DNA from: an uncultured Acidobacteriota bacterium
GTDB lineage: Bacteria; Acidobacteriota; Polarisedimenticolia; JACPZX01; DASXTC01
Reading direction: 5' to 3'
DNA: 64,000 bases
Assembly: GCA_963806495.1 (NCBI GenBank)
Contig: CAWDYA010000010.1
Location: forward strand, 130,971 to 194,970
The notes under the pieces: generated by a model
The model's database searches: none
The model's input: the letters and a program-made list of their open reading frames with translations, nothing else
What the model was told of the DNA's origin: nothing
Position numbers and translations under genes: made by a program
Part shown: one piece after another, positions 4,900-63,845 of the stretch
Layout: each line of letters opens with the position of its first letter
Position numbering within the stretch: the stretch's first letter is position 1

Positions 4900-4910
4900 A
4901 GCGGACGCAT

Positions 4911-4919: not shown

Positions 4920-5056
4920 CACGCTCCCCGCGGCCGCGTAAAGCGTCGGATTCCTTTTGCGCGACCACCTTTTGTTGTACACTTCGTCAGGTCGAGTCGC
5001 TCCGCGGCGGAGGGGGGAGGAAGGCCCCCGCGCGGGCCGCCACCCCCGGGGTCACG

Positions 5057-6754: not shown

Positions 6755-6769
6755 GGGGGACGCCCCCCG

Positions 6770-8498: not shown

Positions 8499-8596
8499 CG
8501 TTCAGGCCTCCCGATATCCGTTCATTGCGGCTAACATACAAGACGTTACCTTACCAGATTCCCCCAGGCGGTGCGCGGCCGCGCCGCACCGGAGCG

Positions 8597-8947: not shown

Positions 8948-9013
8948 TACGCAGCACCCCACGGCGAGATTCCGGTCTTTCGTCAGCTTACTTCGCACTC
9001 CGAGGAGGTCATC

Positions 9014-9628: not shown

Positions 9629-9635
9629 CCCCGGG

Positions 9636-12657: not shown

Positions 12658-13349
12658 GCCGCCTCCGCCCCGACCACCTGCCCGTCCACGAGCGTGACCA
12701 CGCGACGGGTGCGGCTGGCCACAGCCCGGTCGTGGGTGACGATGATCAGCGTATGGCCCTGCGCGTTCAGATCGTCGAAGATGCCCAGGATCTCCTCGCC
12801 GGTCTTCTGATCGAGATTGCCGGTTGGCTCGTCCGCCAGGATGATCGCCGGATCGTTGACGAGCGCCCGCGCGATCGCCACGCGCTGCCGCTGGCCGCCG
12901 GAGAGCTGCGACGGGATGTGCTTGAGCCTGTCGCCGAGCCCCATCCGCCCCAGCATCCCGGCCGCGCGCTCACGGCGGCGTGCTCGCGAGACCCCCGAGT
13001 ACATCATCGGCAGCTCGACGTTCCTGAGGATCGAGGCACGCGGCAGCAGATTGTAGGTCTGGAAGACGAAGCCGATGCGCCGGTTGCGGACGCTGGCCAG
13101 CGACCAGCCGGTCATGTCCGAGACCCTGTCGCCGGCCAGGACGTACTCGCCGCTGCTCGGCGTGTCGAGCAGCCCGACGATGTGCATCAGCGTCGATTTG
13201 CCGGAACCCGACGGGCCCATGATCGCGACGTACTCGCCCTGCGAAATGCTGAGGCTGACACCCCGCAGCGCCTGGACCGATGTCTCGCCGGCATCGTAGG
13301 TCTTGCGGATGTCGGCGAGGCGGATGACCTCTCCATTGGGCGGATTCAT
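12654..13349 (-). CDS. ABC transporter ATP-binding protein (MacB/LolD-type, not fused to a permease)
   Basis: Walker A 'GPSGSGKST', signature '[15 protein letters not shown]', Walker B '[12 protein letters not shown]', H-loop 'VTHD'. Confidence 0.9.
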
Positions 13350-30852: not shown

Positions 30853-31036
30853 CGGCCCGAGGGTCCGTTTCAGCGAGTCGGGCAGGGTCTCCTCCTCGAT
30901 GACGCGCATACCGTGAGGGATGCTTATACCACATCCGGCGGCCCGGGCGGCGCGTTTCCTTGCCCGGCCGCCTCTGCTATGCTCCGGGCGATATCCCGCA
31001 TCCCCCCCGAGGGGATCAGATCATCCAGTCTCACCC

Positions 31037-34000
31037 ATGGTGCGAACCCCGATGCTCTGCCCCGTCTGTCAGACCCCCAACCCCGATGACGGCCGTTTCT
31101 GCAGCCAGTGCGCCGAGCCGCTCCTCGCGAAGACGGGCGCCTCCCGCCCCGGGTCGGCGGGATCACTCGCGGCCACCACGGCGGGCGGCATCACCGGCTC
31201 GGGCATCCGGTCGGGCTCCCTGCCTCCGGGCCACCTGCTCGGCGACAGGTACCGGATCGAGGCGGCGCTCGGCATGGGCGGCATGGGGATGGTCTACCGG
31301 GCGATCGATTGCGAGCTGAACGTCCCGGTGGCGCTCAAGCTGATCCGCGGCGAGTACGCCGACAACCCGCAGATCGTCGAGCGATTCAAGAAGGAGATCA
31401 CGATCGCCCGGCGGGTGACGCACCGCAATGTCGCGCGCATCTACGACATGGGTGAGGCGGAAGGGTTCCGGTACATCTCGATGGAATACATCGAGGGCCG
31501 TGACCTGGCGGGGCTCGTCGCGGAGAAGGGGCGGTTCGGCGTGGAGGAGACGCTCTCGATGCTGAGACAGGTGTGCGCCGCGCTGAAGGAGGCTCACGCG
31601 TCGGGCGTCGTGCATCGCGACCTCAAGCCCCACAACATCATGCTCGACGCCTCCGGTGGCGCCCACGTCATGGACTTCGGCATCGCCATGGCGGCCGACG
31701 CGGGAGGCATGACCCGTACCGGCGCGCTGGTCGGCACGCCGGAATACATGTCCCCCGAGCAGGCCGAGGGCCGCCGCGTCGATCACCGCTCCGACATCTA
31801 CTCGCTCGGGATCACCCTGTACGAGATCCTCGCGGGCGACGCCCCGTTCAAAGGGGACACGACGTGGGAGGTCATCAGGAAGCAGGTCACCCAGCGCCCC
31901 CAGTCGATCCGCAGGCTGCGCAAGGACGTCCCGGAGTGGCTCGACACGCTGATCCTCAAGTGCCTGGAGAAGGACCCGGCACTGCGATACCAGTCGGTCG
32001 GCGAGATCCTCAACGATCTCGACCGCCAGAAGGCACGGCTCTCCCCGCGTCACTACCTGCCATCGCGGCGCTCCGTGCTGCTCGGTGCGGCGGCGCTCGT
32101 GCTCGTCGCGGCCGCGGTGGGCGTGACGATGTACCTCGGCCCGAGGACGCCGGTGGCCGGCGAGGACGGCCGGCGCTCCGTGGCGATCCTCCCCTTCCAG
32201 AACCAGACGGGCCGGGCCGATCTCGACTGGCTGCGCACCGGGCTGGCCGACAACCTCACCACCGATCTGGCCGAATCGAGGTACTTCCGCGTCCTGTCAC
32301 GGGAGCGGCTGACGCAGATCCTCGGCCAGCTCGGCCTCGACGATGTCTCGCGGCTGGACGCGGCGGCACTGCAGAAGATCGGCGAGTTCGGCGCCGTGGA
32401 GGCGATCATCACCGGATCGTTCCTCAGCGCCGGCGACGAGATCCGCGTGAACCTGCGACTGCAGGATCCCGCCACCGGGGAGATCTTCCGCAGCGCCTCG
32501 GTCAACGGACGCGAGAGCCAGGTGCTCGGGATGATCGACGGTCTGACCCGGACGACCAAGCAGATGTTCCAGCTCGCGCCCGAGCGGCTCGCCGGGGACA
32601 GCGACCTGGATCTCGCCTCGGCGCGCACCTCGGTGGTCGAGGCCGCCAGCGCCTTCCAGCGGGGCGTCGACCTCCTTTACCAGGGCCGGAATCTCGAAGC
32701 GATCGGGCCGCTGGAGGCGGCGGTCTCGGCCGATCCGCGCTTCGCGATGGCGCACGCCCGTCTCGCGGAGGCCCACATGCGCACCGGGCACGACAGCGAG
32801 GCGCTCCAGGAGAGCCAGGCCGCCATGGACCGCATGCTGGCGGAGGCCGAGAAGATCCCGCAGGCGGACCGCACCTTCATCCGCGCGCTGCACGGCAGGA
32901 TCAGCAACAGGCCCGAAGAGTCGATACGCGCCTACGAGGAGCTGCTTGCGGGCGACCCCGGCGATTCGTTCGTCTCGTTCAGCCTCGGGGAGGTCATCGA
33001 GGGCACAGGCGACTTCCCGGCGGCTGAGAAGCGGTTCGAGGACGCGATCGCGGGCGATCGGAAGAACCCGGTGCTGCATTTCGCGCTGGGGCGCGTGCGG
33101 ATCAAGGCGGGTCGGGACGAGGAGGCGCTGCCGGAGCTGCAGAAGGCGCTCGAGCTGTACGGGCAGATGGGCAGCGAGGAGGGGCAGGGCAACACGCTCA
33201 ACGCCATGGCGCTCGCCAACGAGGATATCGGCCGGTACCAGGAGGCGCTCGACTACTACGGCCGCTCCGAGGCGATCAAGCGCCGGATCGGGGACAAGCG
33301 CGGCCTCGCCTCCACGCTGAACAACAAGGCGTTCCTCCTGCAGATCCAGGGGCACCTGAAGGACGCTACCCGCATCACCGACGAGGCACTGGCACTCACC
33401 CGCGAGATCGGCGACACCGATCACACCGCCGCGATCCTCGCGAACCTCGGGAGCCTCGAGGACGAGGGCGGCGACCCGGAACGGGCCGCGTCGTACTACA
33501 CCGAGGCGCTCGAGCTGAGGCGCACGCTCAAGGATCGTGCCGGGCAGGTGACCTGCCTGATCGGCATGAACCGCGCCGATGCAGCCATGGGACGGCTCGC
33601 GCAGGCCGAGGAGCGGCTGGACGAAGCGGGCCGGATCGCACGCGAGATCGATGACCGGGAGAGCCAGGCGCAGATCGTCTCGGAGCGGGCACGGATCGCC
33701 TGGCTGCGCGGCGACCTGCCGGCGGCACGCGCCGGGCAGCTCGACGCGGTCGCACGATGGCAGGAGGTCGAGCGGAGCGACGGCGTCGCCGAGGCCCGCC
33801 AGCGTCTCGCGTTCGTCGAGGCGTCGGCCGGACTTCATGGCAGCGCCCGGCGGTCGGCCCTCGAGGCGCTGTCGACCTACGTCGATCTGGAGGACAGGAC
33901 CAATCAGGCCCGGCTCAATCTCCTGCTCGCCCGGCTGTCTCTTGCCGACGGCGACCCGGCCGGCGCGCTGAAGAAGGAAGGCGAGGCGTCCGACGCGCTC

Positions 34001-34621
34001 GCGCTGCTGGACAACCCCGTCCTCTCCGCGCAGGCGGCGCTGACCCGTTGCCGCGCGCTGCTGGCCAGGGATGACGCCGCGGGGGCGCGCGAGGCAGCCG
34101 AGGAGGTCTGCGCCGCGGCGAAGCGGACCCCCGCCGTCCTCGCCTCGATCCAGTGCGGGCTGGCCCGCAGCCTCACCGGTAGCGCGTCGGACGCGGTCTC
34201 GCAGGCCCTGACCGCCTCCACGCGGGCGGCCGACAACGGCCTCGCACTGCTTCACGTCGAGGCGGACCTGGCGCTCGCCTCCGCGTACCTGCGGGCCGGA
34301 GAGGCCTCGCAGGCTTCGACCCGCGCGCGCCTCGCGATGGAGGAGGCGTCGAAGCGGGGCCTGCCGCTGCCCCAGCTCGAAGCGGCGCCGATGGTCGCAC
34401 GCGCGCAGTGGGGCGCGGGTCGGCGGGACGAGGCGGTCAGAACCCTCCAGGCAGCCTTCACGGCGCTCGAGCCGACGGAGGCGGATCTCGAGCCGGCCGC
34501 ACTCGCCGCTTTCCGCGCCGGCGCCCGCTACCACGCCGCAGCCGCGCTGCTGGCAGGGTACCTGAAAGAACTGGGCCGGGACGCGGAGGCGGCAACCATC
34601 AGCCGCCGCGCGGGTCTCTGA
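31037..34621 (+). CDS. multidomain Ser/Thr protein kinase: N-terminal zinc ribbon, Hanks kinase, TM helix, periplasmic domain, long TPR array
   Basis: 'CPVCQTPNPDDGRFCSQC' zinc ribbon. Kinase motifs 'VALKLI', 'HRDLKPHNIML', 'DFGIA', 'GTPEYMSPE'. TM 'VLLGAAALVLVAAAVGVTMYL'. TPR-like repeats over ~700 aa (e.g. 'LGNTLNAMALANEDIGRYQEALDYYGRSEAI'). Start at ATG 31037; the ORF track begins at 30920. Confidence 0.85.
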   Translation: MVRTPMLCPVCQTPNPDDGRFCSQCAEPLLAKTGASRPGSAGSLAATTAGGITGSGIRSGSLPPGHLLGDRYRIEAALGMGGMGMVYRAIDCELNVPVALKLIRGEYADNPQIVERFKKEITIARRVTHRNVARIYDMGEAEGFRYISMEYIEGRDLAGLVAEKGRFGVEETLSMLRQVCAALKEAHASGVVHRDLKPHNIMLDASGGAHVMDFGIAMAADAGGMTRTGALVGTPEYMSPEQAEGRRVDHRSDIYSLGITLYEILAGDAPFKGDTTWEVIRKQVTQRPQSIRRLRKDVPEWLDTLILKCLEKDPALRYQSVGEILNDLDRQKARLSPRHYLPSRRSVLLGAAALVLVAAAVGVTMYLGPRTPVAGEDGRRSVAILPFQNQTGRADLDWLRTGLADNLTTDLAESRYFRVLSRERLTQILGQLGLDDVSRLDAAALQKIGEFGAVEAIITGSFLSAGDEIRVNLRLQDPATGEIFRSASVNGRESQVLGMIDGLTRTTKQMFQLAPERLAGDSDLDLASARTSVVEAASAFQRGVDLLYQGRNLEAIGPLEAAVSADPRFAMAHARLAEAHMRTGHDSEALQESQAAMDRMLAEAEKIPQADRTFIRALHGRISNRPEESIRAYEELLAGDPGDSFVSFSLGEVIEGTGDFPAAEKRFEDAIAGDRKNPVLHFALGRVRIKAGRDEEALPELQKALELYGQMGSEEGQGNTLNAMALANEDIGRYQEALDYYGRSEAIKRRIGDKRGLASTLNNKAFLLQIQGHLKDATRITDEALALTREIGDTDHTAAILANLGSLEDEGGDPERAASYYTEALELRRTLKDRAGQVTCLIGMNRADAAMGRLAQAEERLDEAGRIAREIDDRESQAQIVSERARIAWLRGDLPAARAGQLDAVARWQEVERSDGVAEARQRLAFVEASAGLHGSARRSALEALSTYVDLEDRTNQARLNLLLARLSLADGDPAGALKKEGEASDALALLDNPVLSAQAALTRCRALLARDDAAGAREAAEEVCAAAKRTPAVLASIQCGLARSLTGSASDAVSQALTASTRAADNGLALLHVEADLALASAYLRAGEASQASTRARLAMEEASKRGLPLPQLEAAPMVARAQWGAGRRDEAVRTLQAAFTALEPTEADLEPAALAAFRAGARYHAAAALLAGYLKELGRDAEAATISRRAGL

Positions 34622-49911: not shown

Positions 49912-50541
49912 ATGCGGCTGCTGAGCACCGTGATGGTAAAGCTCGCGTGCGGCCTGACCCTGGTTGCGGCGCTCGCACTCGGCGCCGTGCCGGCCGCCGC
50001 GTCGATCATGAGGTTCCTGCCTGTCGAGGAGTTGGCCCGGGCGTCGACCCGGGTGGTCAGGGCCAGGGTAACCGGCCGATCGGTCCACTGGACCGCCGAC
50101 CACAAGGGGATCTACACCGAGATCGACGTGGTGGTAGTCGGTCCGGCCATCAAGTGGCGGGGCGAGCCGGCCACGGCAGCCGCGGGCAGGCGTCTGACCA
50201 TCATCCAGGCGGGGGGCGTCATCGACGGCGTGTCGCTCGACTGGACGGGGCGCCCGACCTTCAGGAAGGGTGAGGATCTGGTGCTGTTTCTCGACGCGTA
50301 CGACGAGGGGAACCCCTCCGATGCCCGGTTGCTGGTGGTGGGGGGCAAGCAGGGGCGCATGAAGGTACTGCCCGATCCCGGCGGATCCGGCGCGCTGATG
50401 GTCGAGCGGGACCTCGCGGGGGTACTCGACGCCCCGTTCGTCGACTCGGGCACGCCCGATGCGGGCTCCCATAGGCGTGATCTGCTGAAACTGGACGACT
50501 TGCGGGCCCGGGTGCTCGCCACGCCGGGAGGCCCCCGATGA
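49912..50541 (+). CDS. hypothetical secreted protein, translationally coupled to the matrixin gene
   Basis: Signal peptide (MRLLSTVMVKLACGLTLVAALALGAVPAAAS), 209 aa. Its stop overlaps the ATG of the downstream metalloprotease (ATGA). Confidence 0.45.
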   Translation: MRLLSTVMVKLACGLTLVAALALGAVPAAASIMRFLPVEELARASTRVVRARVTGRSVHWTADHKGIYTEIDVVVVGPAIKWRGEPATAAAGRRLTIIQAGGVIDGVSLDWTGRPTFRKGEDLVLFLDAYDEGNPSDARLLVVGGKQGRMKVLPDPGGSGALMVERDLAGVLDAPFVDSGTPDAGSHRRDLLKLDDLRARVLATPGGPR

Positions 50542-52316
50542 GCCCGGCGACGCGGCGCCCCGTCCCGGCCCTGCTCCTGGCGGCCCTGCTCCTGGCGGTC
50601 CCTTCGGCCGCGTTCGGGTTCGTCCGCTCCACGCTGAGCGCAACCGACGCGACCCCCCTGAGATGGGATCTCGACGAGACGATGCTCCCGCTGTCGAACG
50701 TGCAGTCAGGCGAGATCGTCTGGGTCTTCGATGTGGCCGGTAGCAGCAACCTGCCGGGGCCGGAGGATGCCGAGGCGGTCCAGCGGGCCTTCGACCACTG
50801 GGAGGGGATCGGCAGCTCGCGCGTCGCCTTCGTGCGGGGCGCCGACCAGGATGTCCAGGCCGCCAACAACGACGGGATCAACGTGGTGTACTGGGCCGAG
50901 GGCGCGCACACGGTAATCGGCGGCACGAACACCAGCGTCACCGGGTTCGTCTCGCTGACGCCGGTGTTCAGCGTGGCGTCGGGCGCCAACAAGGGCCTCA
51001 TCATGGACGCCAACATCGTGCTCAACGGCCGTCAGGAAACCTGGACCGTCACCCCCGAAAGCGACGGTTTCTGGGATGTCGAGGCGGTAGTGACGCACGA
51101 GATCGGCCACTTCATCGGTCTGGATCACAGCCCGGTGCTCGGCTCGTCGATGGCGCCGCGGTTCCTCAGCGGCGAGTCCCGGATGCGGATGCTTCAGCTC
51201 GACGACATCCTCGGCGCGTCCACGATCTACCCCGACGGCGACTTCTCGACGGCGTACGGGGCCATCAACGGCAGCGTGGGACGTCCGGCCGGCGTGTTCG
51301 GCGCGCTGGTGACCGTGCTCGACAGCGGCGGCCGTGTGATCCAGGAATCGATCACGGCGGCCAACGGAGCCTACACGGCGCCCGGCCTCGCAAGCGACGA
51401 TTACGATGTCTACGTCGAGCCGGTCGACGCGACGCCGGCCTCCTCGACCAACCTGTTCGACGAAACCGACCTCGGAGGCGTGTACGGGGCCACGGTGGAT
51501 CCCAACTTCTTCGCCGCGCTCCCCCTGCTCACCACGGTCACCGCACCCGATTCGACGGTCCGGTCTTTCCTGGTCGGCGGCACCCCGCCCGCGATCAACA
51601 TCGCCAAGATCGGCGGCCGGGCCTCGACACTGGCCAGCCTCGTGTTCAGAACGGCCCCGACGTTTCTCGTGGCCGGAGACAGCGACGTCCTGCTCGGCTT
51701 CGCGGGGCCGAACCTCGATTCCTCCGTGGTCGTGGAGATCACCGGCCCCGGCATCACGGACAACGGCCTCGTCAGCACCGGCTCCGTGGACGGAGAGCCA
51801 TACGTCGTCCGGTCGTACACGGTCAGCCCGTCGGCACCGCAGGGGCTGCGCAGCGTGCGCATCAACGCGGGCGGCGCCGGCAGGACATACGCCACCGGTG
51901 CGATCCGGGTCTACCCGAACCTCGCGATGAACTTCGCCTCCCCGGGCGTCTTCTTCGCTGTGCCGGGCGAGGTGAACCGCGGACTCGGGCCCCAGATCCC
52001 GCTCACGCTGACCTTGAGCGGCAACGACGTGGACATGCTCTGGGACGACGAGCCGGGAGCGTACGGGTACAACGTCTACCGCGGCAGCCTGACCTCGCTC
52101 AAGGGGGGTATCTATGACCACGCGCCGATTCCCGGTGACGTCAACGGGCAGTGCCGTCTCACGACGCCATACACGGTTCTGAAGGGGGAGGCGCTCGATC
52201 CGTCGCCGGTCTACTACCTCGTGACGGCCTTCAACAATGTCGGCGAGGGGATCATCGGGCGTAACAGCTCCAACCAGCCGATCCCGGGCCCGGCGACACC
52301 CTGCCCGGTCCCCTGA
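50538..52316 (+). CDS. secreted matrixin-like (M10-type) zinc metalloprotease with a large C-terminal beta-rich domain
   Basis: Signal peptide and zinc motif 'HEIGHFIGLDHS' (HExxHxxGxxH) followed by a Met-turn region; ~350-aa C-terminal extension. Confidence 0.7.
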   Translation: MSPATRRPVPALLLAALLLAVPSAAFGFVRSTLSATDATPLRWDLDETMLPLSNVQSGEIVWVFDVAGSSNLPGPEDAEAVQRAFDHWEGIGSSRVAFVRGADQDVQAANNDGINVVYWAEGAHTVIGGTNTSVTGFVSLTPVFSVASGANKGLIMDANIVLNGRQETWTVTPESDGFWDVEAVVTHEIGHFIGLDHSPVLGSSMAPRFLSGESRMRMLQLDDILGASTIYPDGDFSTAYGAINGSVGRPAGVFGALVTVLDSGGRVIQESITAANGAYTAPGLASDDYDVYVEPVDATPASSTNLFDETDLGGVYGATVDPNFFAALPLLTTVTAPDSTVRSFLVGGTPPAINIAKIGGRASTLASLVFRTAPTFLVAGDSDVLLGFAGPNLDSSVVVEITGPGITDNGLVSTGSVDGEPYVVRSYTVSPSAPQGLRSVRINAGGAGRTYATGAIRVYPNLAMNFASPGVFFAVPGEVNRGLGPQIPLTLTLSGNDVDMLWDDEPGAYGYNVYRGSLTSLKGGIYDHAPIPGDVNGQCRLTTPYTVLKGEALDPSPVYYLVTAFNNVGEGIIGRNSSNQPIPGPATPCPVP

Positions 52317-53128: not shown

Positions 53129-53205
53129 GGGCCCTTAGCTCAGCTGGATAGAGCGTCTGACTACGAATCAGAAGGTCGGGTGTTCGAATCACCCAGGGCC
53201 CACCA
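53129..53205 (+). tRNA. tRNA-Arg (anticodon ACG), CCA encoded
   Basis: Cloverleaf read by eye: acceptor GGGCCCT/AGGGCCC, D arm GCTC-AGCTGGAT-AGAGC, anticodon stem TCTGA/TCAGA with loop CTACGAA, T arm GGGTG-TTCGAAT-CACCC, discriminator A, then CCA. Confidence 0.85.
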
Positions 53206-53230
53206 GCACTCTTCCCGTGACGGCGGGGAC

Positions 53231-53814
53231 TTAGCCGTACAGCCTTCCGGCCGATTCCCTCGTTGTCACCAGGTTGTCACCACGAGGTTCGGCGGGAGCG
53301 TCCAGGCTGTTCACGGCCGCCTTGTTCTCCATCGGCAGCCATCGGCCGTAGGTGTCCACCGTGAGTTGGATGGACGGGTGGCCGAGTTGCCGTTGCACGT
53401 AGGAGGGACTCACGCCGCTCTGCAGCAGGATGCTGGCGAACGAGTGGCGCAGGCAGTGAGGGTGGAGAAGTGCGCGGGCAGCTTGGCGGGCCTCAGGAGG
53501 GCCCTGAGAGCCTTGCCGACGGCGCTACGGTCCAACGGTGTGCCCGCCTCCGTGAAGAAGATCCACTCCGGTAGTTCTCCCCACCCGCGTTCGAGCATGG
53601 TGGCCATACAGGAGACCCGGTGTTTTTGCAGCATGTCGCGCAGGGCGGCGCTCATGTCCACCCGGCGTGACTTCCCGCTCTTGGGGGTCCCCTCCAGGCC
53701 ATCGGTAATCGACCGCTCCACCCGGACCTCCCGGCGTTCCATGTCGATGTCGGCCCACTCGAGTCCTATCGCCTCCCCCAGCCTCGTGCCGGTCCGGGCC
53801 ATCAGGAAGAACAA
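53231..53814 (-). pseudogene. tyrosine recombinase/phage-type integrase, C-terminal catalytic domain only (N-terminal ~200 aa deleted) with one internal frameshift near 53445
   Basis: 'LMARTGTRLGEAIGLEWADIDMERREVRV' (start of the catalytic domain) in 53410..53814. '...HCLRHSFASILLQSGVSPSYVQRQLGHPSIQLTVDTYGRWL' (R-H-R-Y region with catalytic Tyr) is spread over a -1 frame and ORF 53231..53413. Only 146 bp remain upstream, too short for the N-terminal domain. Confidence 0.8.
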
Positions 53815-53961
53815 GGGGTCTCACTCAGTACCCGCCCAACACCTGAGCTGACCGGGCGGCGGCAGAGGCGTCGATTATGGATTCCGCGCCCATCCGCCGC
53901 TCCGGTTGAGCGACCTGCTAGCTGGCCTGACGAATCCCAAACCTCAGGCCGATTCATTGTG

Positions 53962-55371
53962 CTAGGGCACTTGCTTCACCGCCGGAGGGTTCCATTTGCC
54001 GGTGAGGGCATCGGGCTTCGGGGCGTAGAGACGCATGGTCAGGTTGAACAGCTCTTTGGGCGCGGGAAGCCAATTGGCTTCCAGATCCTTGCCGGGACTT
54101 TCGTTCTGGAAATACAGATCGAGCGAACCATCGGCATTGGTCTTGAACGGCATGTAACTGCTAAGCGCGAAGCGATTCAGCGCGTTGCCGACCTGGAAGC
54201 CCTCTCCGTCATAGAGCGTGATCGACCAGAAGGCGTTCACGGGCGGTGTTGCGCCCTTGGCGAAGTGAATGGTGTACTTGTTCGCGCCACTCAGCGGCTT
54301 GCCGGCTTCATCGCCGAGGTTCAGCGGATAGATCGCATCCTCGGGGAGATTCGCGCCAAGGCCCAGCTGGGTGACGATGGCACGCTTGAGGTAGTAGTTG
54401 CCGTACACGCCCATCGTGTCGGTATTCATCGACCAGCCGTTGGCGACCCGGGCCACCGTCGGCAGTTTCCACGCCATGAGTTTCTGGCCTTCAGCCGGGG
54501 CGGCTTCGAGGGCGCCTCGAATCACCGTGTCAACGTTCTTGATATCGAAACTCTTGCCAGGTTCGATTCCAAGGCGCTTCATCTGCGCAATGATCGGCTG
54601 GTCGGTGACATGAGGCGGATTCAGTTTCATCAGTTCCGCTGCATAGGCGAAGTACTTATCCGCGGGCATGGTGTCGACCTGGGTCTTGGGCGGGGTCTTC
54701 ATGTCCACACTCGGATCGATCTTTACAGTCATCTGGGCGGGCGGCTTGCCCCAACTCGAGAGCGGGGTGATTTTGTAGCCCGCCTGGATCTTATTAACAG
54801 CAGGGTAATCGGCGGAGCCGTCGGTCTTGGTGCGGCCGATTACCCAGACATATGGTGTCGGTGCGGGAATGTGCGAGAAGCCGCTCGGCACCTCGCCCGT
54901 CCAGCCGGGAGGCGTGACAAGGAAGTTACCGGCCTGAGTGCCGGTGGTTCGCCAACCCGGCGAAGCGAAAACGTCAGTCCACATGTCGAGCATGGGCAGC
55001 AGGTAGTACCGGCCATCGGTATCCGGTGCGGAGACGATCAGCGGTTCCTTCGTCAGGTCCAACCAGGCGACGGAATAGAGCGTGTCGAAGTTGACACGCA
55101 CGACGATTTTCAGATCGGCAGGCGGGTACTCCGGGACGCTGACGAACATGTTCATCGGTGCCTTGCCGAGCTCTTTGCCGGGTTCAACGTTCGTGCTTTG
55201 CAGACGGGTAATGTCCATCGACACCAGCGGGTAGAAGTAGATATAGGCGTCCACGGCGATGGCACGCGCCTCCGCTGCGCCGACCTTGTCTTGGGCGTGA
55301 GCCTGGATCTGTGGAAGCGCAAGCAGCGCCATGATGCACCCAAACGCGATGAGTCTCGTGCGTTTCATCAT
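53962..55371 (-). CDS. secreted DUF1254/DUF1214-domain protein (island cargo)
   Basis: Signal peptide (MMKRTRLIAFGCIMALLALPQIQAHA). 469 aa with DUF1254-like N-half ('YIYFYPLVSMD...NFDTLYSVAWLDL') and DUF1214-like C-half ('NAFWSITLYD'). GC by eye ~58-60% with many AAA/GAA/AAG codons, unlike neighbouring genes. Confidence 0.7.
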   Translation of the reverse strand: MMKRTRLIAFGCIMALLALPQIQAHAQDKVGAAEARAIAVDAYIYFYPLVSMDITRLQSTNVEPGKELGKAPMNMFVSVPEYPPADLKIVVRVNFDTLYSVAWLDLTKEPLIVSAPDTDGRYYLLPMLDMWTDVFASPGWRTTGTQAGNFLVTPPGWTGEVPSGFSHIPAPTPYVWVIGRTKTDGSADYPAVNKIQAGYKITPLSSWGKPPAQMTVKIDPSVDMKTPPKTQVDTMPADKYFAYAAELMKLNPPHVTDQPIIAQMKRLGIEPGKSFDIKNVDTVIRGALEAAPAEGQKLMAWKLPTVARVANGWSMNTDTMGVYGNYYLKRAIVTQLGLGANLPEDAIYPLNLGDEAGKPLSGANKYTIHFAKGATPPVNAFWSITLYDGEGFQVGNALNRFALSSYMPFKTNADGSLDLYFQNESPGKDLEANWLPAPKELFNLTMRLYAPKPDALTGKWNPPAVKQVP

Positions 55372-55884
55372 CTTGTGTCTCCTTTGGTATTGAATCGGAT
55401 GAAAAACTGGGGAGCTAACGCTGAGCGTAGCCGGCGGCGGGTGAGTATGCGGACGACGTCCGCGCCGAGCCCGACGGCCCGCCGGCAGGTTGACGCTGCA
55501 GTTAGAATGGTGCTCGACCTACAGGTGGCGCCCACCGGAGCCACCGACCTGCCCTCAAGCATACGCCCGAAGGCGGCAGCCCGGAAGGGTCGTTGGTACG
55601 CCGGTCCCTCGGTGTTTACCTGCAGGTGCCAACCCCAGAGCCACGGCCTGGCCCTTCCCTATCCCTATGAGACACGCACCCGCCAGCCAAGGTGGCCCAC
55701 CAACGTGATGCCGTTTCCGTGAAATCGGCACGAGGATCACCACGGCAGACGACATGATGAAAGAACAAAGAAGGAAGACACGATTGGTTCTTGAGGCTAC
55801 ATTCTAACTAGAACCTATCTCAAAATCAATTCGACAATCGATCTCCTGATGCGGTATCATGACGCGCGCTGCTTCAGTTGAGCG

Positions 55885-56502
55885 TTGAGCGACGAACACT
55901 GGGAACGGATCAGGGAGCACTTCCCTGAAGAGAACATTCCTGACGGCCGCCCTGGCCGAAAGCCGATCCCGACACGCAGCGTGCTCGAGGCGGTTCTCTG
56001 GATCCTGAACACCGGCGCCCAGTGGCACATGCTCCCGCAGTGCTACCCGAGCTACAAGACCGTTCATCGCCACTTCCAGAACTGGTGTCGCAACGAAGTT
56101 CTTCGCTCCGTCCTGACCGACCTCGCCAACGGGTTGCGCGATGAGGGAGTCATCGACGAGCGCGAGAGCTTCATCGACGCGACGTTCGCCTCGGCGAAGG
56201 GCGGCGGTGAAGGCATCGGCCCCACGAAACGCGGCAAGGGCGTGAAGATCATGGGGATCGTCGATCGTCATGGTTTGCCTCTGGTGGTCAGTACGCACGC
56301 GGCGAATCATCATGAAGTCACGCTGGTCCAGCTGACGTTTGACTTCTACATGATCGAGGCCAGGCCTGAGACACTGATCGGCGATCGGGCGTACGACAGC
56401 GACAAGCTCAATACTCTCCCTCCAGTTTCGTGGGTCGCCAGTTCCCCAAGGAGATCGGACACGGTTGCGCCTACCTCTCACCACGCTGTCACCCTGGGGT
56501 AG
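55885..56502 (+). pseudogene. IS5-family transposase fragment (DUF4096 N-domain + DDE up to the second Asp; C-terminal ~45% missing)
   Basis: 'HWERIREHFPEE...GRPGRKPIPTRSVLEAVLWILNTGAQWHMLP' (IS5 N-terminal domain), 'LIGDRAYDSDKL' (DDE region). No frame downstream continues the expected '...IAPHRSNR...' region. Confidence 0.7.
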
Positions 56503-56576: not shown

Positions 56577-56621
56577 CTGCGAATCAGAAGGTCGGGTGTC
56601 CGAATCACCCAGGGGCCACCA
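56577..56621 (+). repeat. direct repeat of the tRNA-Arg 3' half (attR-like) marking the distal island boundary
   Basis: 'ctgcgaatcagaaggtcgggtgtccgaatcacccaggggccacca' versus tRNA 'ctacgaatcagaaggtcgggtgttcgaatcacccagggcccacca' (3 mismatches). No matching 5' half, so it is not a second tRNA. Confidence 0.7.
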
Positions 56622-57117
56622 CCACCCACCCGTGCCGGGGGCCTGGTTCGCCCATGAGGCGACCCGGCCTGTTTCCCAGGAGCTCCCCGGGCCCGGGCAG
56701 GCTCCGAACGCATGAAAGGGTCTCTGCCGCGCTGCGGTCCGCGAATTCCTGCCATGATTCACCGGGGACCCGCCTCGTTATCCACGTATACACTTCGCCA
56801 CCTCTGCGGCTTTGCCGGGCCAGGGGTTGCCAGTCCCCGAACTCGGAGGTAGCCCACCAGATCTCCCCGCCGAGAATCGCCAGCTCGCGATGGGAGAGTT
56901 CCTTGATGAGTCGGGGTACCTGCCTCCGGGGCCAGCCGAACCTACCGGAAGACGATCGGACTGCCGTACGTGCGATTGCGTCCAACGTCATGCCGTACTC
57001 GCTGGCGAACGTTGGCGTTTGGTGGGAACCGCGGCGGCCGAAAGCACGGAGGGAGTCCGCGCCGCGCCCGAACGCGCGCCGTCGGGTTGAGGCTGCGGTT
57101 CGGCAGAGAGTGGGACG

Positions 57118-57714
57118 TTATGGTTTGCCCGATTCAACTGCCAATCGCAGGTCATTGAATGAATTTGCCGGGAACCCATGCTGAACCCACTCCTTCTGAC
57201 AGCCTTCGATGCCCCGTCTTCTCTCGAGATCCTCGAGGCCTCGCGGGAGGGTAGGGCAGAATTCCTGCGTCGAGCAGGACCCGCTGAGCAGGACCTTGCC
57301 CTCATGATCCGGGCGTTGACAATCCATGCCGGGAAATTCGAGCAGGTGCAAATCGAGAACGCCCGGACGGAGTTGCTCGAACACCCAGCGATACTCCCGC
57401 GGCTCCTCGATGGACGAGGCACGCTCGGAGCCCGCGTCCCTGGAAAGCCGGACCGCGGCCGACACCAGGTCACCCAGCGCGTCTGAGACATGTGAGGCGG
57501 TCACGGTCACCTCCTGTCCGCCCGGCGAAAGCGTGCAGACCGCCCATCCGACACCGTCGAGTTCATACCTGATCCGGACCTCCAGGTTCGCCTCGTGATC
57601 ATCTCCGCGGGAGTTGGAATCCAAAGGACCCGGAGTCCACCGGGCGGATGGGTTGGCTCGCCCGCAAGAGACACAACGCCCGAGGTGACCCTCCTCGAAC
57701 GTCTCCACGGGCAA
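57118..57714 (-). CDS. hypothetical protein (coding strand uncertain; a 102-aa ORF overlaps on the + strand)
   Basis: 198-aa ORF with TTG start, GC3 ~78%, varied composition (MPVETFEEGHLGRCVSCGR...EFPGMDCQRPDHEGKV...). No recognisable domain; lies between the island attR and the Kelch gene. Confidence 0.3.
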   Translation of the reverse strand: MPVETFEEGHLGRCVSCGRANPSARWTPGPLDSNSRGDDHEANLEVRIRYELDGVGWAVCTLSPGGQEVTVTASHVSDALGDLVSAAVRLSRDAGSERASSIEEPREYRWVFEQLRPGVLDLHLLEFPGMDCQRPDHEGKVLLSGSCSTQEFCPTLPRGLEDLERRRGIEGCQKEWVQHGFPANSFNDLRLAVESGKP

Positions 57715-57743: not shown

Positions 57744-60700
57744 CTACGGGCAGGCCGGGATGTCCGCATCGGCGGCAGGCGGGCCCCAGGTAGCCGTCCC
57801 GCAGTCGTTGCGCGCGCGGGCGAGGTACCAGAAGACCTCACCGGGCGCGGGAGCGGCCCGGCCATCGTCGTACCAGGCGGACCCGCCGGCCACCAGGCAG
57901 GTCCCGCTCGTGAAGTCCAGCGCCGCCGAGGCCACCAGGGTGCCCGAGAACAGATCGTACGTGGTTGCCGGCCCCGCGATCAGATCCTGCGCGTCCCAGG
58001 AGAGCGGCGTGGGCGTCGTCACTTCGAGGGTCATGCCCGACACCTCGTCCGGCTCGTGCCATACGGTCGGGTCGCCATCGTCGCAGTCATCGCCGCCGCA
58101 GAGCCCGTCGGGGTGCGTATCGGCATCGTCGTCTCTCGCATTCCCCGGAGCGCAGATGCCCGACGCGCACATGTCGGCGACAGTGCAGGCATCGCCGTCC
58201 GAGCACGCCGTCCCGTCCGGGACGACCGGATTGACACAGCCGCGCGCTGCGCCGCAGACATCCGACGTGCAGTCGTCTCCGTCCGAGCAGTACAAGGCCG
58301 CCCCGTCGTCCTGGATCCCGTCGCAGTCGTCGTCGATCCCGTTGCACACCTCCGTCGCGCCAGGATGGACGTCCCATCGCGCGTCGTTGCAATCACCGTC
58401 GCACGGCGTCCAGCCGTCCCCATCCGTGTCCGCGTAAACATCGGGGAAGAAAAGGGCGTCGCCGACCCCCATCGCGGAGCCGGTCCAGATGGCGTGGCCG
58501 GTGGCGGGAGGCGCGGCATCGGACGACACACCCATCCAGCTGCCACTGCCCGGAGAATACCGCCCGCCCTGCCCCGGGCCGTCGTAGACGATCATCGAGC
58601 TGCCGGTCCAGACCGCCGTGTGCCCGGACATCGCCGGCGGCGGCGTTCCCGCCGTGCCGAGCGCCTGCCAGGTGTCACCGGGCGGGCTGTAGCTCGCGCC
58701 GTCCGACAGCGGCGAGCAGTACGGGCCGCCGCTGCAGACACCGCCACCCCAGACGATCATCCGGGAACCGGTCCAGACCGCGGTGTGCATGTACCGGTCG
58801 CTCGGAGCGTTGGTCGCCGAGATCGGCGACCAGGTGTTGGTGGCCGGGTAATAGGCGGCGCCGTCGTTCAGGGTCGGATAGCCGAGGGGGATGTCGCCCG
58901 AGACGCCTCCCCAGATGATCATCCGCGTGCCGGTCCAGACAGCCGAGTGGTACGCACGGGGCATGAGACCGCTGGCGGCGATCGGGCTCCAGGAGTTTGT
59001 CTCCGGGTCGAACGAATAGCCGTCATCGAGAGCGAGGTAATCGCTGCCGTACCACCCGCCCCATACGATCATCCGCGTGCCGGTCCAGACTGCGGTGTGC
59101 CCCTCGCGCGTGACCGGCGCTCCCATCTGTGAGATGGCCGTCCAGGAATCGGTGACCGGGTCGTAGATGCCGCCCATGCCGGCCCCCGGATAGTCTGTAA
59201 TGCTGCCACCCCACACGATCATCTTCGAGCCCGTCCAGATCGACGTGTAGTCCCTCAGAAACGGCGGTGCTCCCATCGAGGAGATTGGCGTCGAGGTGCC
59301 GGTCGCCGGATCGTAGGTGAACCCTCCCCCCGTGTACGGAGACCAGGAGATCGAGAGACTGCCCGTCCAGACCTGTCCGAAGCCCTTGACCGGGTAAGAG
59401 AAGATCGTCGTCCACGACCCGCCGCCCGGGTCGTACCTGCCGCCGTCAGCCAGCACCGTGCCGTGGTCGAGCCCACCCCAGATCAGGAGCCGGGAGCCGG
59501 TCCACACGGCATCCGGGAGCCTGCGCGACGACGGCGCCCCCATCGCCGTCAGGGAGGACCAGGAATCCATCGCGGGATCGTACCGGTAGCCGTCGTTCGT
59601 TTCACCGCCGACGACAAGGCTGCCGCCCCAGACGACCAGCGCGTCGTCGATCCACGCTACCGCGGGATCGTATCGCGCCGCCGGGGCTCCATCGAGCGAG
59701 ATCGCGGCCCAATCGTCGGTCGCCGGACGATAACGCGCTCCCGTGTTGACCCTCGTCGTCGTGGTGGTACCTCCGTACACGATCATCTCGGTTCCGCTCC
59801 AGACGGCGGCGTGCTGCCTGCGTGCATCGGGCGCGTCGACGCTCGTCATCGGCTCCCAGGTGTCCATAACCGGGTCGTACCGGGCGCCATCGTCGCTCAG
59901 GCCGGACTGCGTGCTGCCTCCCCAGACGATCATCCGACTGCCGGTCCAGACCGCGGAGTGCTGGGACCTGGGTGAGGGCGCGCCTGTCGTCGAAACGGGA
60001 GACCAGGTGTCCGAGACCGGATCGTAGCCGGCACCGGTGTCGAGCCGGGTCGGGCTGGAATAGCCTCCCCAGACGATCATCCGCGTGCCGGTCCAGACTG
60101 CTGTCGCCTCCATCCGGCCTGCCGGGGCCCCCGACAGGCTCGTCGGCGCCCAGGTATCGGTCACAGGGTCGTAGACCCCACCCGTGTCGAAGAGATCCGA
60201 CGTGTATTGGCCGTAGCCGCCCCACACGATCATGCGGTCTCCGGTCCACACCGCCAGTGGGTACCGCCGGGCTGCAGGCGCATCGACGTCGCTGATCGGG
60301 AACCAGGCGTCGATGACCGGATCGTAACGGCCGCCCGTGCCGAGAGGGCCGTTGGTATCCGTCCCGCCCCACACGATCATCTGCGACCCGGTCCAGACCA
60401 CGGCCGCGCCGTAGCGTGGCGAGGGGACGTTGTCGAACCCGACCGGGGCCCAGACCCCTTCCGTCGAGCAGCCCGCGAGGGGCGAGGCGGACGAGCCGGC
60501 CGGCTCGGGCAGATGCATCGGTTCGGCGACGGTTGGCACCGTGTCCCCGTCGAACCGGTCCCGGGCGGCACGCCACCATCGATCCCATCCGACCGGAGTT
60601 GCCCCGGGGCGCGGGGACGTACCATCCGGCGGGTCGGAGACGAACTTCTCACGCAGCAGCCGTTGTGCGAGCGCGGGACGGGCGAGGCATTCCTGTATCA

Positions 60701-61058
60701 GGATCGGATCGTCGTCCAACGCATGGTAGATCTCGCGCAGGCGATCCGGCATGCGCGTCTGCGAGGCCATCCTCTCGACCTCGGCGCGCAGCATCTGCGG
60801 CGTGATCGTGACGTGCCAGACCGCCTCGAGGGCCGCGCTCTTCTCCAGATAGGACCGGACCCTGGCTTCGAGGACTGCTGAGGGGATCGGGTACCGGGCC
60901 GTGTCCTGAGCCGCCGCGTCATGCGCCTGGTAGACGTTTTCAATCGCACGCTGGGCGTCGACCCGTTGCCGGAAGGTGATCTCGGGTGTGTCGCCCGCCG
61001 CGCCCATCAGAATCGGCAACGTACATCCGATCAGTACCGCGGTGACCTGTCGATTCAT
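57744..61058 (-). CDS. giant secreted Kelch-repeat protein (~14 blades, two beta-propellers) with C-terminal MopE-like Cys/Asp-rich putative metal-binding repeats
   Basis: Signal peptide (MNRQVTAVLIGCTLPILMGAAG), ~200-aa helical N-domain, then ~14 repeats of '[ST]AVWTG[ST]RMIVWGG...DG.RYDP..D.W' (Kelch/galactose-oxidase-like). Followed by 'DTDGDGWTPCDGDCNDARWDVHPGATEVCNGIDDDCDG' and two further Cys-rich repeats. Start position +-1 nt uncertain; the ORF track extends to 61109. Confidence 0.8.
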   Translation of the reverse strand: MNRQVTAVLIGCTLPILMGAAGDTPEITFRQRVDAQRAIENVYQAHDAAAQDTARYPIPSAVLEARVRSYLEKSAALEAVWHVTITPQMLRAEVERMASQTRMPDRLREIYHALDDDPILIQECLARPALAQRLLREKFVSDPPDGTSPRPGATPVGWDRWWRAARDRFDGDTVPTVAEPMHLPEPAGSSASPLAGCSTEGVWAPVGFDNVPSPRYGAAVVWTGSQMIVWGGTDTNGPLGTGGRYDPVIDAWFPISDVDAPAARRYPLAVWTGDRMIVWGGYGQYTSDLFDTGGVYDPVTDTWAPTSLSGAPAGRMEATAVWTGTRMIVWGGYSSPTRLDTGAGYDPVSDTWSPVSTTGAPSPRSQHSAVWTGSRMIVWGGSTQSGLSDDGARYDPVMDTWEPMTSVDAPDARRQHAAVWSGTEMIVYGGTTTTTRVNTGARYRPATDDWAAISLDGAPAARYDPAVAWIDDALVVWGGSLVVGGETNDGYRYDPAMDSWSSLTAMGAPSSRRLPDAVWTGSRLLIWGGLDHGTVLADGGRYDPGGGSWTTIFSYPVKGFGQVWTGSLSISWSPYTGGGFTYDPATGTSTPISSMGAPPFLRDYTSIWTGSKMIVWGGSITDYPGAGMGGIYDPVTDSWTAISQMGAPVTREGHTAVWTGTRMIVWGGWYGSDYLALDDGYSFDPETNSWSPIAASGLMPRAYHSAVWTGTRMIIWGGVSGDIPLGYPTLNDGAAYYPATNTWSPISATNAPSDRYMHTAVWTGSRMIVWGGGVCSGGPYCSPLSDGASYSPPGDTWQALGTAGTPPPAMSGHTAVWTGSSMIVYDGPGQGGRYSPGSGSWMGVSSDAAPPATGHAIWTGSAMGVGDALFFPDVYADTDGDGWTPCDGDCNDARWDVHPGATEVCNGIDDDCDGIQDDGAALYCSDGDDCTSDVCGAARGCVNPVVPDGTACSDGDACTVADMCASGICAPGNARDDDADTHPDGLCGGDDCDDGDPTVWHEPDEVSGMTLEVTTPTPLSWDAQDLIAGPATTYDLFSGTLVASAALDFTSGTCLVAGGSAWYDDGRAAPAPGEVFWYLARARNDCGTATWGPPAADADIPACP

Positions 61059-61179
61059 GCCATCCCTCCTCGTCGGTCGGCCGCGACGGGGTCGGGTGGG
61101 GGGATTCAATCGGGCTACGGACAGAATACGCCGTTTTCATCGCCCAGGCACGGAAAAATGTCGGATGAGGAGAGGAGGC

Positions 61180-63845
61180 TTACCGCCGCTTCAGCGCCGC
61201 GCCCCAGTTCGTCACCAGCGTCAGCTCGGGAGCCATCCCGGCTCCGGTCGGCACCGGGGCCAGGATCCGCTTGCGATCCGGGCTCATCGCGAACGCGGAT
61301 GAGGGCAGCGAGTTGCCGCCGAAGAGCGTCTTCGTGGAGCCGATCCGCAGCGTATCGCCGCTCGGATCGACGTCGACGACCATCAGCTTGTTTTCGGGGG
61401 TGGTGTAGTAGATGGAGCGGCCGTCGGCGCTCCAGAAGCTGAGGCCGGCTTCGGAGGAGGAGACCTGCCACTTGGCGGCGAAGCTCGGGTAGGGGGCCAC
61501 GAACAGCTCCGGCCGCCCCGACTCGTCCGAGATCCAGGAGAACCACCGGCCGTCGGGAGAGTAACGCCCCACCTGTTCGTTGTACTGCGTGCTCACCAGC
61601 GGGCGCAGCTTGGCGTCCGGCGAGGCGTCGACCTCCGCGACGTCGAAGCCCGCCTTCCCGTGCTGCCACATCAGCGCGATCGACTTGCCGTCGGGCGACC
61701 AGCTCGTGGGGAGGGCGGGCTGGCCGCCCTCGGAGTAAATCGTCTTCGCCTCCTCCGCGCCGTCGCTCGACCGCATCCAGACGGTCCCCTGCGCGTCGCC
61801 GTACGCCAGGGCCTTCCCGTCGGGCGACCAGATTGGGAAGGCACCGGGCGCCGGCCCGAAGGTGAAGCGTGTTCCCACGCCCCGGTTCAGGTCGAACGTC
61901 CACAGATCCAGCCGGCCGTCAGCCGCACGGATTGACAGCGCCGCGCGGCCGCCGTCGGGTGAGATGTCGAGCGGAGCACCCTCGAAGATTGAGTAGGTCC
62001 CGTCGCTGAGCTGGCCGATCTCCCTGACCCTGGAGGTCGAACCAGGTGAGCCGCGACCCCGAAGCGAGCCCTCCCGTCCGATACAGCAGCAGCCCCGTTC
62101 CCGACACCGTGTAGGCACCGGTCCACCGGTACGGGTTGAAGTCGACCTTCTCGGCGATCGGCGAGGCCTCACCGGTGGTCTTCAGCGTGCCGGCGTCGAA
62201 CGGCTGGGCCATCAGGTTGCCGTCGCGCACGAACACCAGGTAGCCGGGGTCGACATAGATCCCCTCGCTGTCCTCGTTGGCGACCAGGGTGGTCTCGCCG
62301 GTCTCGAGATCGAGCGAGTGTATCCCGTTGCCTTCCGCTCCGGGACCGGTCCCGGAGAAGTAGAGCAGGTGTCGCCCGTCGGGCAGGAAGTGGGGATTGC
62401 GATTCGAGATGGTCTCGCTGTCGACCTTGGTGACCGGTGCCGGCGTGCCGCCCGAGGCGGAGACCTGCATCAGATCCCCGAACGGGGCGGGTGCAAACAC
62501 GATCACGCCGGCCTGGCTCCAGGACGCGCCCCGCCCGTCGAGCGCATCGCAGATCGACTGCACCGCGCCGCCCGCGGCCGGGACACGCTTGAGCTTCCGG
62601 TCGGCGAAGAACGCGAGATTGCTCCCGTCGGGCGACCAGGTCGGGTAGGTGGCCCCGCTGGTGCCGGCGAGCGGCTGCGCCGTGAGGCTGTCGAGCGGCC
62701 GCACGAAGATTTGCTGCCGTCCGCCCTCCCCCGACGCCGTGTATGCCGCCCGTGTCCCGTCGGGCGAAAGCGCCAGCGCGGTGTTCTGGTTGTCCAGGGC
62801 CGTGCCGAGCGGCAGCACCAGGCTGGCCCGGATGGTGGGGGTTGCCGGCGGCGCGGGCGCGTGCAGCATCCAGCCGAGCCCCAGCATCACCGCCGCCATC
62901 ACCCCGTAGCCGCGACTGACGAGCCAGAGGGGGACACGTCTGCCGAGGGGGCGGCGCCGCGGCGGCGCCCGCAACGCCACGCCGCCTGCGATCGGCCGCG
63001 GCGACCCACTCCAGCTCGCGCCGCAGGTCGCCCGCTCTGCCATCGCCCTCGTCCGGATTCTTCGCCAGGCACTGGCGGATGACCCGGATCGAAGCCGGCC
63101 GGGCTCATCGGGTGCATCTCGGTGAGCGGGCGCGGCTCCTCTTTCAGGATTGACGCGATGAGCGAGGCCTGCGTCCTTCCCTCGAACGCCTTCTCCCCGC
63201 CACCATCTCGTAAAGGACCGTGCCGAAGGCGAAGATATCGCTGCGCGGGTCGGCCTCGCGCCCCTCGAGCTGCTCGGGCGCCATGTACTGGAAGGTGCCG
63301 ACGATGGAGCCTTCAGCCGTGAGCGGCCCGGCCATCGTGGGTGACGCCGTGAGCGCCGTCGGCGCGTTGGAGGCGAGCCCCTTGGCCAGACCGAAGTCCA
63401 GCAGCTTGGTGCCCGAGCGGGTGATCATGACATTGCCGGGCTTGAGATCGCGATGGATGATCCCGTCGCGGTGGGCGCGATCGAGAGCGTCGGCGATCCG
63501 ATGCCGTACTTGATGGCCTGTGAGGGAGGAATCGGCCCCTTCTCGAGCTTCTGCGCCAGTGTCTCCCCGTCGAGGAACTCCATCACCAGGTAGTCGACCC
63601 TCCTGGTTGCCGATGTCGAACAGGGAGCAGATGTGCGGATGGTTGAGGCTGGAGACCGCGCGCGCTTCGCGCTCGAAACGCTGGCGAAGCTGCGGGTTGC
63701 CCGACATGTGGCCGGGAAGGACTTTCACCGCGACGGTGCGGTCGAGGCGGGTGTCGGTGGCCTTGTAGACCTCGCCCATGCCGCCCGCGCCGATCGGGCC
63801 TTCGATCGCATACGGGCCGAGCTTCGTTCCCGGTGTCAGCGTCAT
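61180..63845 (-). pseudogene. Ser/Thr protein kinase with C-terminal TolB-like PD40 beta-propeller, interrupted by >=4 single-base frameshifts (probable sequencing indels, or a pseudogene)
   Basis: Kinase: '[12 protein letters not shown]', 'VAVKVL', '[11 protein letters not shown]', 'DFGLAK', 'GTFQYMAPE' (63144..63845). Compensating +1/-1 shifts near 63600 and 63497 restore '[22 protein letters not shown]'. Further shifts lie between 63190 and 62950 and near 62025. TM 'VMAAVMLGLGWMLH', then PD40 repeats ('LALSPDGTRAAYT', 'YPTWSPDGSNLAF', 'PIWSPDGKALAYG', 'SWSPDGKSIAL', 'RYSPDGRWFSW'). Confidence 0.75.

Follow-up and report, generated by a model that had tools for sequence, protein, structure and literature searches.

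The window analysed here is a stretch of 64,000 nucleotides (nt) from an uncultured Acidobacteriota bacterium, and the subject of this report, the target, is a Kelch-repeat protein encoded on its minus strand. The reading frame at 57744-61109 is a single open frame of about 3.3 kb. Translation from the ATG at 61058 yielded a product of 1104 amino acids (aa) identical to database protein P0001, which places the complete coding sequence (CDS), 1104 aa plus the stop codon, at 57744..61058 on the minus strand. This ATG was preferred over the TTG at 61109 because a GGAGG ribosome-binding site, read directly from the sequence at 61065..61069 (minus strand), lies 6 nt upstream of it and because of the identity with P0001. 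The gene is intact, and its product is one ordinary representative of a soil-bacterial family that is very large, uncharacterised and already present in the databases in thousands of copies.

The first 22 residues (MNRQVTAVLIGCTLPILMGAAG; 60993..61058, minus strand) were assigned as a signal peptide or signal anchor on the basis of hydrophobicity and alignment with orthologues. They form a short basic and hydrophobic segment with a hydrophobicity peak of 2.3, and a hydrophobic stretch directly precedes the N-terminal domain (N-domain) in 300 of 312 family members. The lipobox-like 'LIGC' in this segment was considered as a lipoprotein signal and rejected; its Cys is not conserved in the alignment of the closest orthologues, and for this reason aa 1-22 are read as probably a Sec type I signal. 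An earlier note on this DNA had proposed an exported protein of about 1100 aa, and the length of 1104 aa and the conserved hydrophobic N-terminus support that proposal, in which export is a prediction.

The N-terminal domain and the Kelch array

Fourteen units with the motif '[VIAL]W[STI][GD]' start between aa 218 and aa 854 with a period of 41-55 aa and share the consensus 'AVWTGxxMIVWGG...GGRYDPxxDxW'. A search with hidden Markov models (HMMs), the check that had been suggested for these units, placed them well above the gathering thresholds of the Kelch models PF24681 (427.5 bits, cut-off 50), PF24981 (180 bits, cut-off 50) and PF01344 (102 bits across 7 stretches, cut-off 20). Consistent with this assignment, a full-length AlphaFold2 (AF2) model (predicted local distance difference test score, pLDDT, 83.4; predicted template modelling score, pTM, 0.72) had four strands per unit throughout the Kelch region (aa 203-875) at a pLDDT of ~90-97, and the best matches found by Foldseek in the Protein Data Bank (PDB) were the Kelch domains of KLHL12, Keap1 and KLHL17 (E ~1e-16). 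The predicted blades are thus four-stranded and resemble solved Kelch domains.

To count blades, an HMM was applied to the 153 family members that carry the N-domain and whose array is not cut by a contig end. Blade number was 7 (n=7), 14 (n=122) or 21 (n=6), with few off-values; in the target 13 blades were detected by HMM and a degenerate 14th completes the set. Because the number is quantised at 7, 14 and 21 across the family, the 14 blades would form two seven-bladed propellers, as the earlier note had suggested from the unit count, and the pTM likewise points to a 7+7 split with closed propellers. Propeller 1 would consist of a leading strand (aa 203-205) and blades 1-7 (aa 218-559), together at 59382..60452 on the minus strand, and propeller 2 of blades 8-14 (aa 560-875; 58434..59381, minus strand), of which blades 8 and 14 are degenerate. 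The confidence of the AF2 model dips at aa 551-560, which may mark the junction of the two propellers.

The units had been described as near-identical, and the DNA as a 2-kb block of ~150-bp tandem repeats prone to recombination and collapse; neither description held. Pairwise identity between blades was 15-61% (mean 39%) at the amino acid level and 43-67% (mean 53%) at the nucleotide level, and no exact repeat within the CDS was longer than 29 nt. Tandem Repeats Finder reported no ~150-bp array, even at a minimum score of 30, and a repeat search recovered 121-nt copies that were 61-72% identical. The closest relatives of the target, P0002 (1105 aa, 62% identity) and P0003 (1124 aa, 55% identity), come from independent assemblies and are colinear with it blade for blade. 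Since the blades have diverged, form no array and are colinear between orthologues, repeat-driven instability or assembly collapse is unlikely. The source is probably a metagenome-assembled contig and the adjoining kinase gene contains frameshifts, both of which would fit an array that was collapsed or expanded during assembly and a count of 14 that is an artefact. Such a mis-assembly is nevertheless very improbable indeed: to the blade divergence, the missing array and the colinear orthologues are added a frame that stays open over 3.3 kb and the fact that 14 is the modal blade number of the family.

A Kelch propeller could also belong to an enzyme, either a sugar mutarotase or epimerase of the NanM/YjhT type or a radical copper oxidase resembling galactose oxidase. 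The JGI label 'N-acetylneuraminic acid mutarotase' on many homologues speaks for this possibility, as do weak partial matches of the target to PF24996 NANM, TIGR03547 and NF010730. The scores lay far below the cut-offs for membership, however (TIGR03547, 59 bits against 256; NF010730, 50 against 416; TIGR03548, 32 against 243), and the matches to the mutarotase models span about two blades, or ~90 residues. No oxidase catalytic domain was found among the Pfam hits at E<=1, where the galactose/glyoxal oxidase families Glyoxal_oxid_N and DUF1929 were looked for at the family level only. The residues kept throughout the family, W, G, Y, P and D of every blade, are structural Kelch positions and include no single active-site constellation, and members differ in blade number and in their C-terminal modules in the manner of adhesin-like proteins. 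A catalytic role is for these reasons considered quite unlikely.

The family is defined by the N-domain, which spans aa 23-140 (60639..60992, minus strand) and was delimited with homologue profiles and the AF2 model. Folding with 28 homologues predicted five helices at a pLDDT of 93.9, in agreement with the helical N-domain of the earlier note. At E<=10 the domain matched nothing in Pfam and gave only a chance-level match to CseB in NCBIfam (E = 0.065, 12.6 bits against a cut-off of 350); its profile found no relative among PDB sequences (best E 0.27), and its model no fold relative in the PDB by Foldseek (best E = 0.79, TM 0.24). A protein with the SurA_N_3 chaperone domain was tried as a relative and rejected, the hhalign probability being 0.15%.

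The N-domain was present in 114 of the 120 best homologues, and the C-terminal domain also in 57. An exhaustive search with the N-domain profile recovered 3116 representative clusters (50% identity), of which 1219 matched at E<=1e-30. Of the top 150 profile hits, 149 have a domain that begins within the first ~235 residues, and Kelch arrays were found in 9 of 10 sampled N-domain proteins. The target scores 177 bits with the N-domain HMM, a value that is partly circular since the target sits in the source alignment, and it has the layout of the family, a helical domain of ~115 aa after the signal and then Kelch blades whose number is a multiple of seven. The 4336-aa protein P0242 matches the N-domain at two places, including an internal one at aa 923-1036, and also carries Kelch arrays; PKD, fn3, twelve RCC1 repeats and CBM96 are its further modules. 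Co-occurrence across homologues, clusters and P0242 suggests that the N-domain and the Kelch propeller behave as a single evolutionary cassette.

Many of the top N-domain matches are 'proteins' of 150-220 aa. At L001 (ENA contig_7334, 449,893 bp; 8001-8600 and 12178-12717), the sole such locus inspected, an N-domain gene is followed by gene fragments that include a Kelch piece. This looks like the pattern typical of a frameshift-ridden long-read assembly, in which fragments inflate the count of short members, and stand-alone N-domain proteins were rejected as an independent module because the locus resembles a broken gene.

The N-domain is joined to the array by a linker (aa 141-202; 60453..60638, minus strand) that includes a conserved 'WxxWW' helix (aa 158-168) as well as a segment of low model confidence. 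An insertion of ~120 aa after the N-domain is present in some homologues and missing in others. A disulfide between Cys124 and Cys197, which would join the N-domain to propeller 1, was considered and rejected; 23 homologues keep the second Cys without the first.

The Cys/Asp-rich repeats and the shared C-terminal tail

Of the 22 Cys residues in the protein, 17 fall within the last 220 aa. Asp/Cys-rich repeats are indeed present at aa 877-1002, as the earlier note had stated, in what would be an extracellular position; they are not the three MopE repeats that it had counted. A DxDxDG stretch and one complete MopE-type motif (PF11617) lie at aa 877-920 (58299..58430, minus strand; 38.8 bits against 27). 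The HMM check of PF11617 gave 38.8-42.4 bits against the cut-off of 27 and so confirmed the match itself, with a single full copy (aa 889-918) and a partial second stretch. Two Cys-rich 'C.DG..CT.D.C...GC' units follow at aa 924-969 (58152..58289, minus strand), with a weak match in two stretches to the slime-mold repeat Dicty_CTDC (PF00526; 17.5 bits against 27, E = 0.0037), a family that also appears in the precomputed annotation of some homologues. The last element is a half MopE-type motif (RDDDADTHPDGLCGGDDCDDGDPTVW) at aa 975-1002 (58053..58136, minus strand), which is always found ahead of the C-terminal domain. Homologues have between 1 and ~8 MopE-type units, with the 14 blades constant.

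The confidence of the AF2 model fell below 50 at aa 877-1002, which we take as usual for small repeats that depend on metals or disulfides. With the C-terminal 251 aa as the query, a phmmer search of all PDB chains returned one non-significant dockerin-like DxDGDG match (E = 0.39) and nothing else. DxDxDG motifs are classical Ca2+ sites, as in TSP3 and dockerin repeats, and the repeats of the target stalk are probably stabilised by Ca2+ and disulfides, being more likely of the Ca2+ type than copper sites.

Copper binding had been inferred from the MopE-like repeats, which would make the protein an extracellular scaffold whose Cys/Asp repeats chelate copper or another metal. The PF11617 score above cut-off, the NCBI name 'MopE-related protein' on some homologues and the requirement of the homologous Asp-rich segment of MopE for Cu(II) column retention (PMC3423442) are consistent with such a scaffold. 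Copper binding does not follow from them. The high-affinity Cu(I) site of MopE consists of His132, His203 and kynurenine-130 and lies elsewhere, in a fold that is missing here, and the Asp-rich motif is located in a disordered segment and is implicated only in weak Cu(II) retention (PMC3423442). Coordination by Cys, moreover, received no support from electron paramagnetic resonance (PMC3423442). The target has a single complete motif and, in its C-terminal region, no sequence match to any solved chain. Because the motif travels with a generic tail on proteases, lipases and lectin-like proteins, it is better regarded as a linker element than as a functional core, and a copper scaffold is judged improbable.

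The tail ends in a divergent FN3-like domain (C-domain; aa 1003-1104; 57747..58052, minus strand) with three conserved Cys and the terminus '...IPACP'. AF2 predicted a mainly beta-strand domain at a pLDDT of ~90. The last 115 aa matched no family in Pfam or NCBIfam at E<=10, type IX secretion tails included, and the C-domain profile gave weak matches to solved FN3 domains (chitinase A1, E = 0.0019; integrin beta-4, E = 0.003; titin, E = 0.008).

The same domain was detected elsewhere in the window, at the end (51954..52301, plus strand) of an M10 metalloprotease gene at 50538-52316. A profile built from the final ~105 aa of the target aligned with the C-terminus of this protease, 5 kb away, at an hhalign probability of 94% (E = 1.5e-7). 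Pairwise BLAST of the two tails was marginal (E = 0.022), so that a profile was needed; the C-domain profile from alignment A4 includes the protease tail as a row, which makes the match of that profile to the tail circular. The M10 gene (plus strand) encodes a secreted matrixin-type metalloprotease (HEIGHFIGLDH) with a CarboxypepD_reg domain, and its FN3-like domain likewise terminates in Cys-Pro.

Through the pattern 'WYL[VA]RA[RT]N', 80 metagenome ORFs with a C-domain were recovered, of which 76 have 0-16 residues between the end of the domain and the stop codon. Most encode non-Kelch proteins: the domain is carried by S8 subtilases, GDSL lipases, Sortilin/BNR propellers, Laminin_G_3 lectin-like domains, FG-GAP repeats, SGL/NHL and PD40 propellers and proteins without a known domain, often with TSP_3 or MopE motifs just before it. 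A word-indexed search with the C-domain profile found only 5 short proteins. The C-terminal ~230 aa are therefore a generic tail that is promiscuous in its cargo and not specific to the Kelch protein.

Two C-domain genes occur at each of the loci L014, L099, L113, L137 and L150, adjacent to one another in L099 and L113. In the L099 pair (2715-6467 and 6516-9773) no cargo domain could be recognised; TSP_3 and MopE motifs were the only features identified. The paired loci suggest local families of tail-bearing exoproteins.

Relatives and neighbouring genes

A search with the full-length target identified 5897 proteins among 8000 scored candidates. Relatives with names are a 'MopE-related protein' or 'Kelch repeat-containing protein' of Candidatus Polarisedimenticolia and other Acidobacteriota, and full-length relatives were also found in Verrucomicrobiae, Blastocatellia and other metagenome-assembled genomes (MAGs). 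The repeats had been offered as a taxonomic hint of the Myxococcus type, which in view of this spread is unspecific. A literature search returned no paper linking Kelch and MopE in bacteria.

No conserved neighbourhood was found in three homologue loci, nor in an all-against-all comparison of the ORFs of 34 loci. Upstream of the target gene, at 61180-63845 on the minus strand, lies the gene that had been described as a PD40-propeller kinase. It does combine a Ser/Thr Pkinase domain with a PD40 propeller, but it is split over three reading frames and its position beside the Kelch gene is not conserved. In a tblastn comparison with an intact 861-aa homologue, the kinase frame jumped near 63198 and again within the PD40 part, which places the frameshifts at about 62.0-63.2 kb, and the kinase domain breaks off at position 197 of the 263 in its profile; the gene is either a pseudogene or affected by assembly errors. 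At 4 of the 34 loci (L082, L109, L111 and the window at 61180-63845), Ser/Thr kinases lie next to Kelch or C-domain genes, sometimes on both sides. Given the abundance of such kinases in these genomes, their recurrence is probably due to chance.

On the other side, a terminator-like stem-loop with a weak T-tail (57675..57703, minus strand) lies 41 nt past the stop codon. Two minus-strand ORFs downstream of the Kelch gene, at 57118-57714 (198 aa) and 56605-56991 (128 aa), have no Pfam match and no exact database copy. The reality of the first, or its start, is doubtful because the hairpin overlaps that start. What looks like a decayed integrated element adjoins the Kelch gene at 53129-56502 and comprises a tRNA-Arg(ACG) (53129-53205), a truncated phage-type integrase (53410-53814, minus strand), a DUF1254/DUF1214 gene (53962-55371; GC 0.60 against ~0.68) and an IS5-type transposase fragment (55885-56502). 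Elsewhere in the window, the gene at 30920-34621 (plus strand) encodes a 1233-aa Ser/Thr kinase with a CsgG-like segment and a long TPR/MalT-like region, an unusual combination.

Predicted function and comparison with known systems

The reading that we favour, to which about an even chance is given, is that of an exported, probably non-catalytic, multivalent binding protein that its generic tail retains or sorts at the surface. The Sec-type signal would direct transfer across the inner membrane, and the helical N-domain would pack on or cap the first propeller. Binding of a ligand, protein or glycan would take place at the variable loop faces of the two seven-bladed propellers. The disulfide-rich, Asp-rich repeats would act as a stalk, and the terminal FN3-like domain would retain or sort the protein in the matrix or on the cell surface. 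What the analysis shows is that the gene is intact, how its domains are arranged, how many blades it encodes, to which family it belongs and that its tail is promiscuous; that the protein is exported, acts by binding, takes up Ca2+ and not copper, and is anchored or sorted by its tail is what we infer.

Several points weigh against this reading. No ligand can be named for the propellers, and no experiment on any family member, nor a paper on one, was found. Export is read from the hydrophobic N-terminus, and the protein might stay in the periplasm. The contact between the N-domain and the propeller and the 7+7 partition are deduced from the quantised blade number and the pTM. The all-against-all ORF comparison of the 34 loci revealed no dedicated sorting gene recurring beside C-domain genes, and the FN3-like domain at the end might serve as an ordinary spacer or bind substrate instead of being an anchor or sorting tag.

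Some of these points bear directly on whether the protein is instead periplasmic, for example an envelope scaffold that is never displayed or secreted and whose C-domain is an ordinary FN3 spacer. In a diderm a Sec signal alone leads only to the periplasm, the profile of the C-domain weakly matches ordinary FN3 domains such as those of chitinase A1 and integrin beta-4, and no recurrent secretion or sorting genes lie nearby. Against a periplasmic location, the same tail is found on proteases, lipases and lectin-like proteins that are expected to act outside the cell, and TSP3, MopE and dockerin-like Ca2+ motifs are typical of extracellular proteins. A domain that is strictly terminal in 76 of 80 ORFs would also be unexpected of a mere spacer. 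The periplasmic alternative is accordingly held to be doubtful, and display or sorting at the surface remains the preferred reading.

A bolder extension of the preferred reading is put forward tentatively and regarded as rather unlikely. The tail, with its Asp/Cys-rich TSP3/MopE linkers and its FN3-like domain of ~100 aa with a Cys-Pro end, would be an undescribed sorting or anchoring signal of soil bacteria whose cargoes include the Kelch protein and the M10 protease. Such a signal would be used by bacteria such as the Acidobacteriota and Verrucomicrobiota among the relatives, and its logic would be analogous to that of type IX C-terminal domains. If the tail is a sorting or anchoring tag, the exoproteome of poorly cultured soil bacteria, comprising proteases, lipases and lectin-like proteins, could be predicted from a simple feature of sequence. 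The N-domain, for its part, is an unannotated family of more than 3000 clusters that almost always occurs together with Kelch propellers. The family itself is large (~3100 N-domain clusters at 50% identity) and common in soil metagenomes, is routinely mis-annotated as sialic-acid mutarotase or 'MopE-related' protein, and holds two domains, the N-domain and the C-terminal domain, for which Pfam and NCBIfam have no model.

The system closest to the target is the uncharacterised bacterial Kelch/MopE-related family, in which the order of parts is the same: signal, N-domain, 14 blades, MopE-type repeats and C-domain. The Candidatus Polarisedimenticolia MAG proteins P0040, P0067, P0077 and P0098 are 37-46% identical to the target over 77-99% of the length. 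Nothing essential sets the target apart from this family; its blades 8 and 14 are degenerate to a greater extent than those of most other members.

MopE of Methylococcus capsulatus is a secreted copper-binding protein that shares the short PF11617 motif with the target, and both would be exported. The copper site of MopE (His132, His203 and Kyn130) and its fold are missing from the target, where the motif is, unlike in MopE, a linker element of the generic tail. The sialic-acid mutarotase NanM/YjhT, on which the JGI label of the homologues is based, is a periplasmic Kelch propeller, as the target too may be, and its HMMs match the target in part. It is, however, a single six-bladed propeller of ~350-380 aa, and the scores of the target fall 4- to 8-fold under the cut-offs of that family.

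Type IX secretion tails (Por_Secre_tail, TIGR04183) are also mainly beta domains of ~100 aa that end many unrelated exoproteins. The C-domain shares with them its extreme C-terminal position on diverse cargo, and at some loci, this window included, it is present in more than one copy; the resemblance is an analogy of behaviour only. It differs in its conserved Cys and terminal Cys-Pro and has no match to models of the TIGR04183/PF18962 type in Pfam or NCBIfam at E<=10. We know of no report of type IX secretion in the groups of the relatives, Acidobacteriota and Verrucomicrobiota.

The four-stranded blades themselves are shared with KLHL12, Keap1, KLHL17 and KLHL20 (target-normalised TM ~0.76, 23-27% identity). 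The eukaryotic proteins carry a single six-bladed cytoplasmic propeller behind BTB-BACK, whereas the target would be exported and carry two seven-bladed propellers behind an unrelated helical N-domain. Eukaryotic Kelch propellers are ligand-binding platforms that act through their loop faces, the role proposed here for the propellers of the target.

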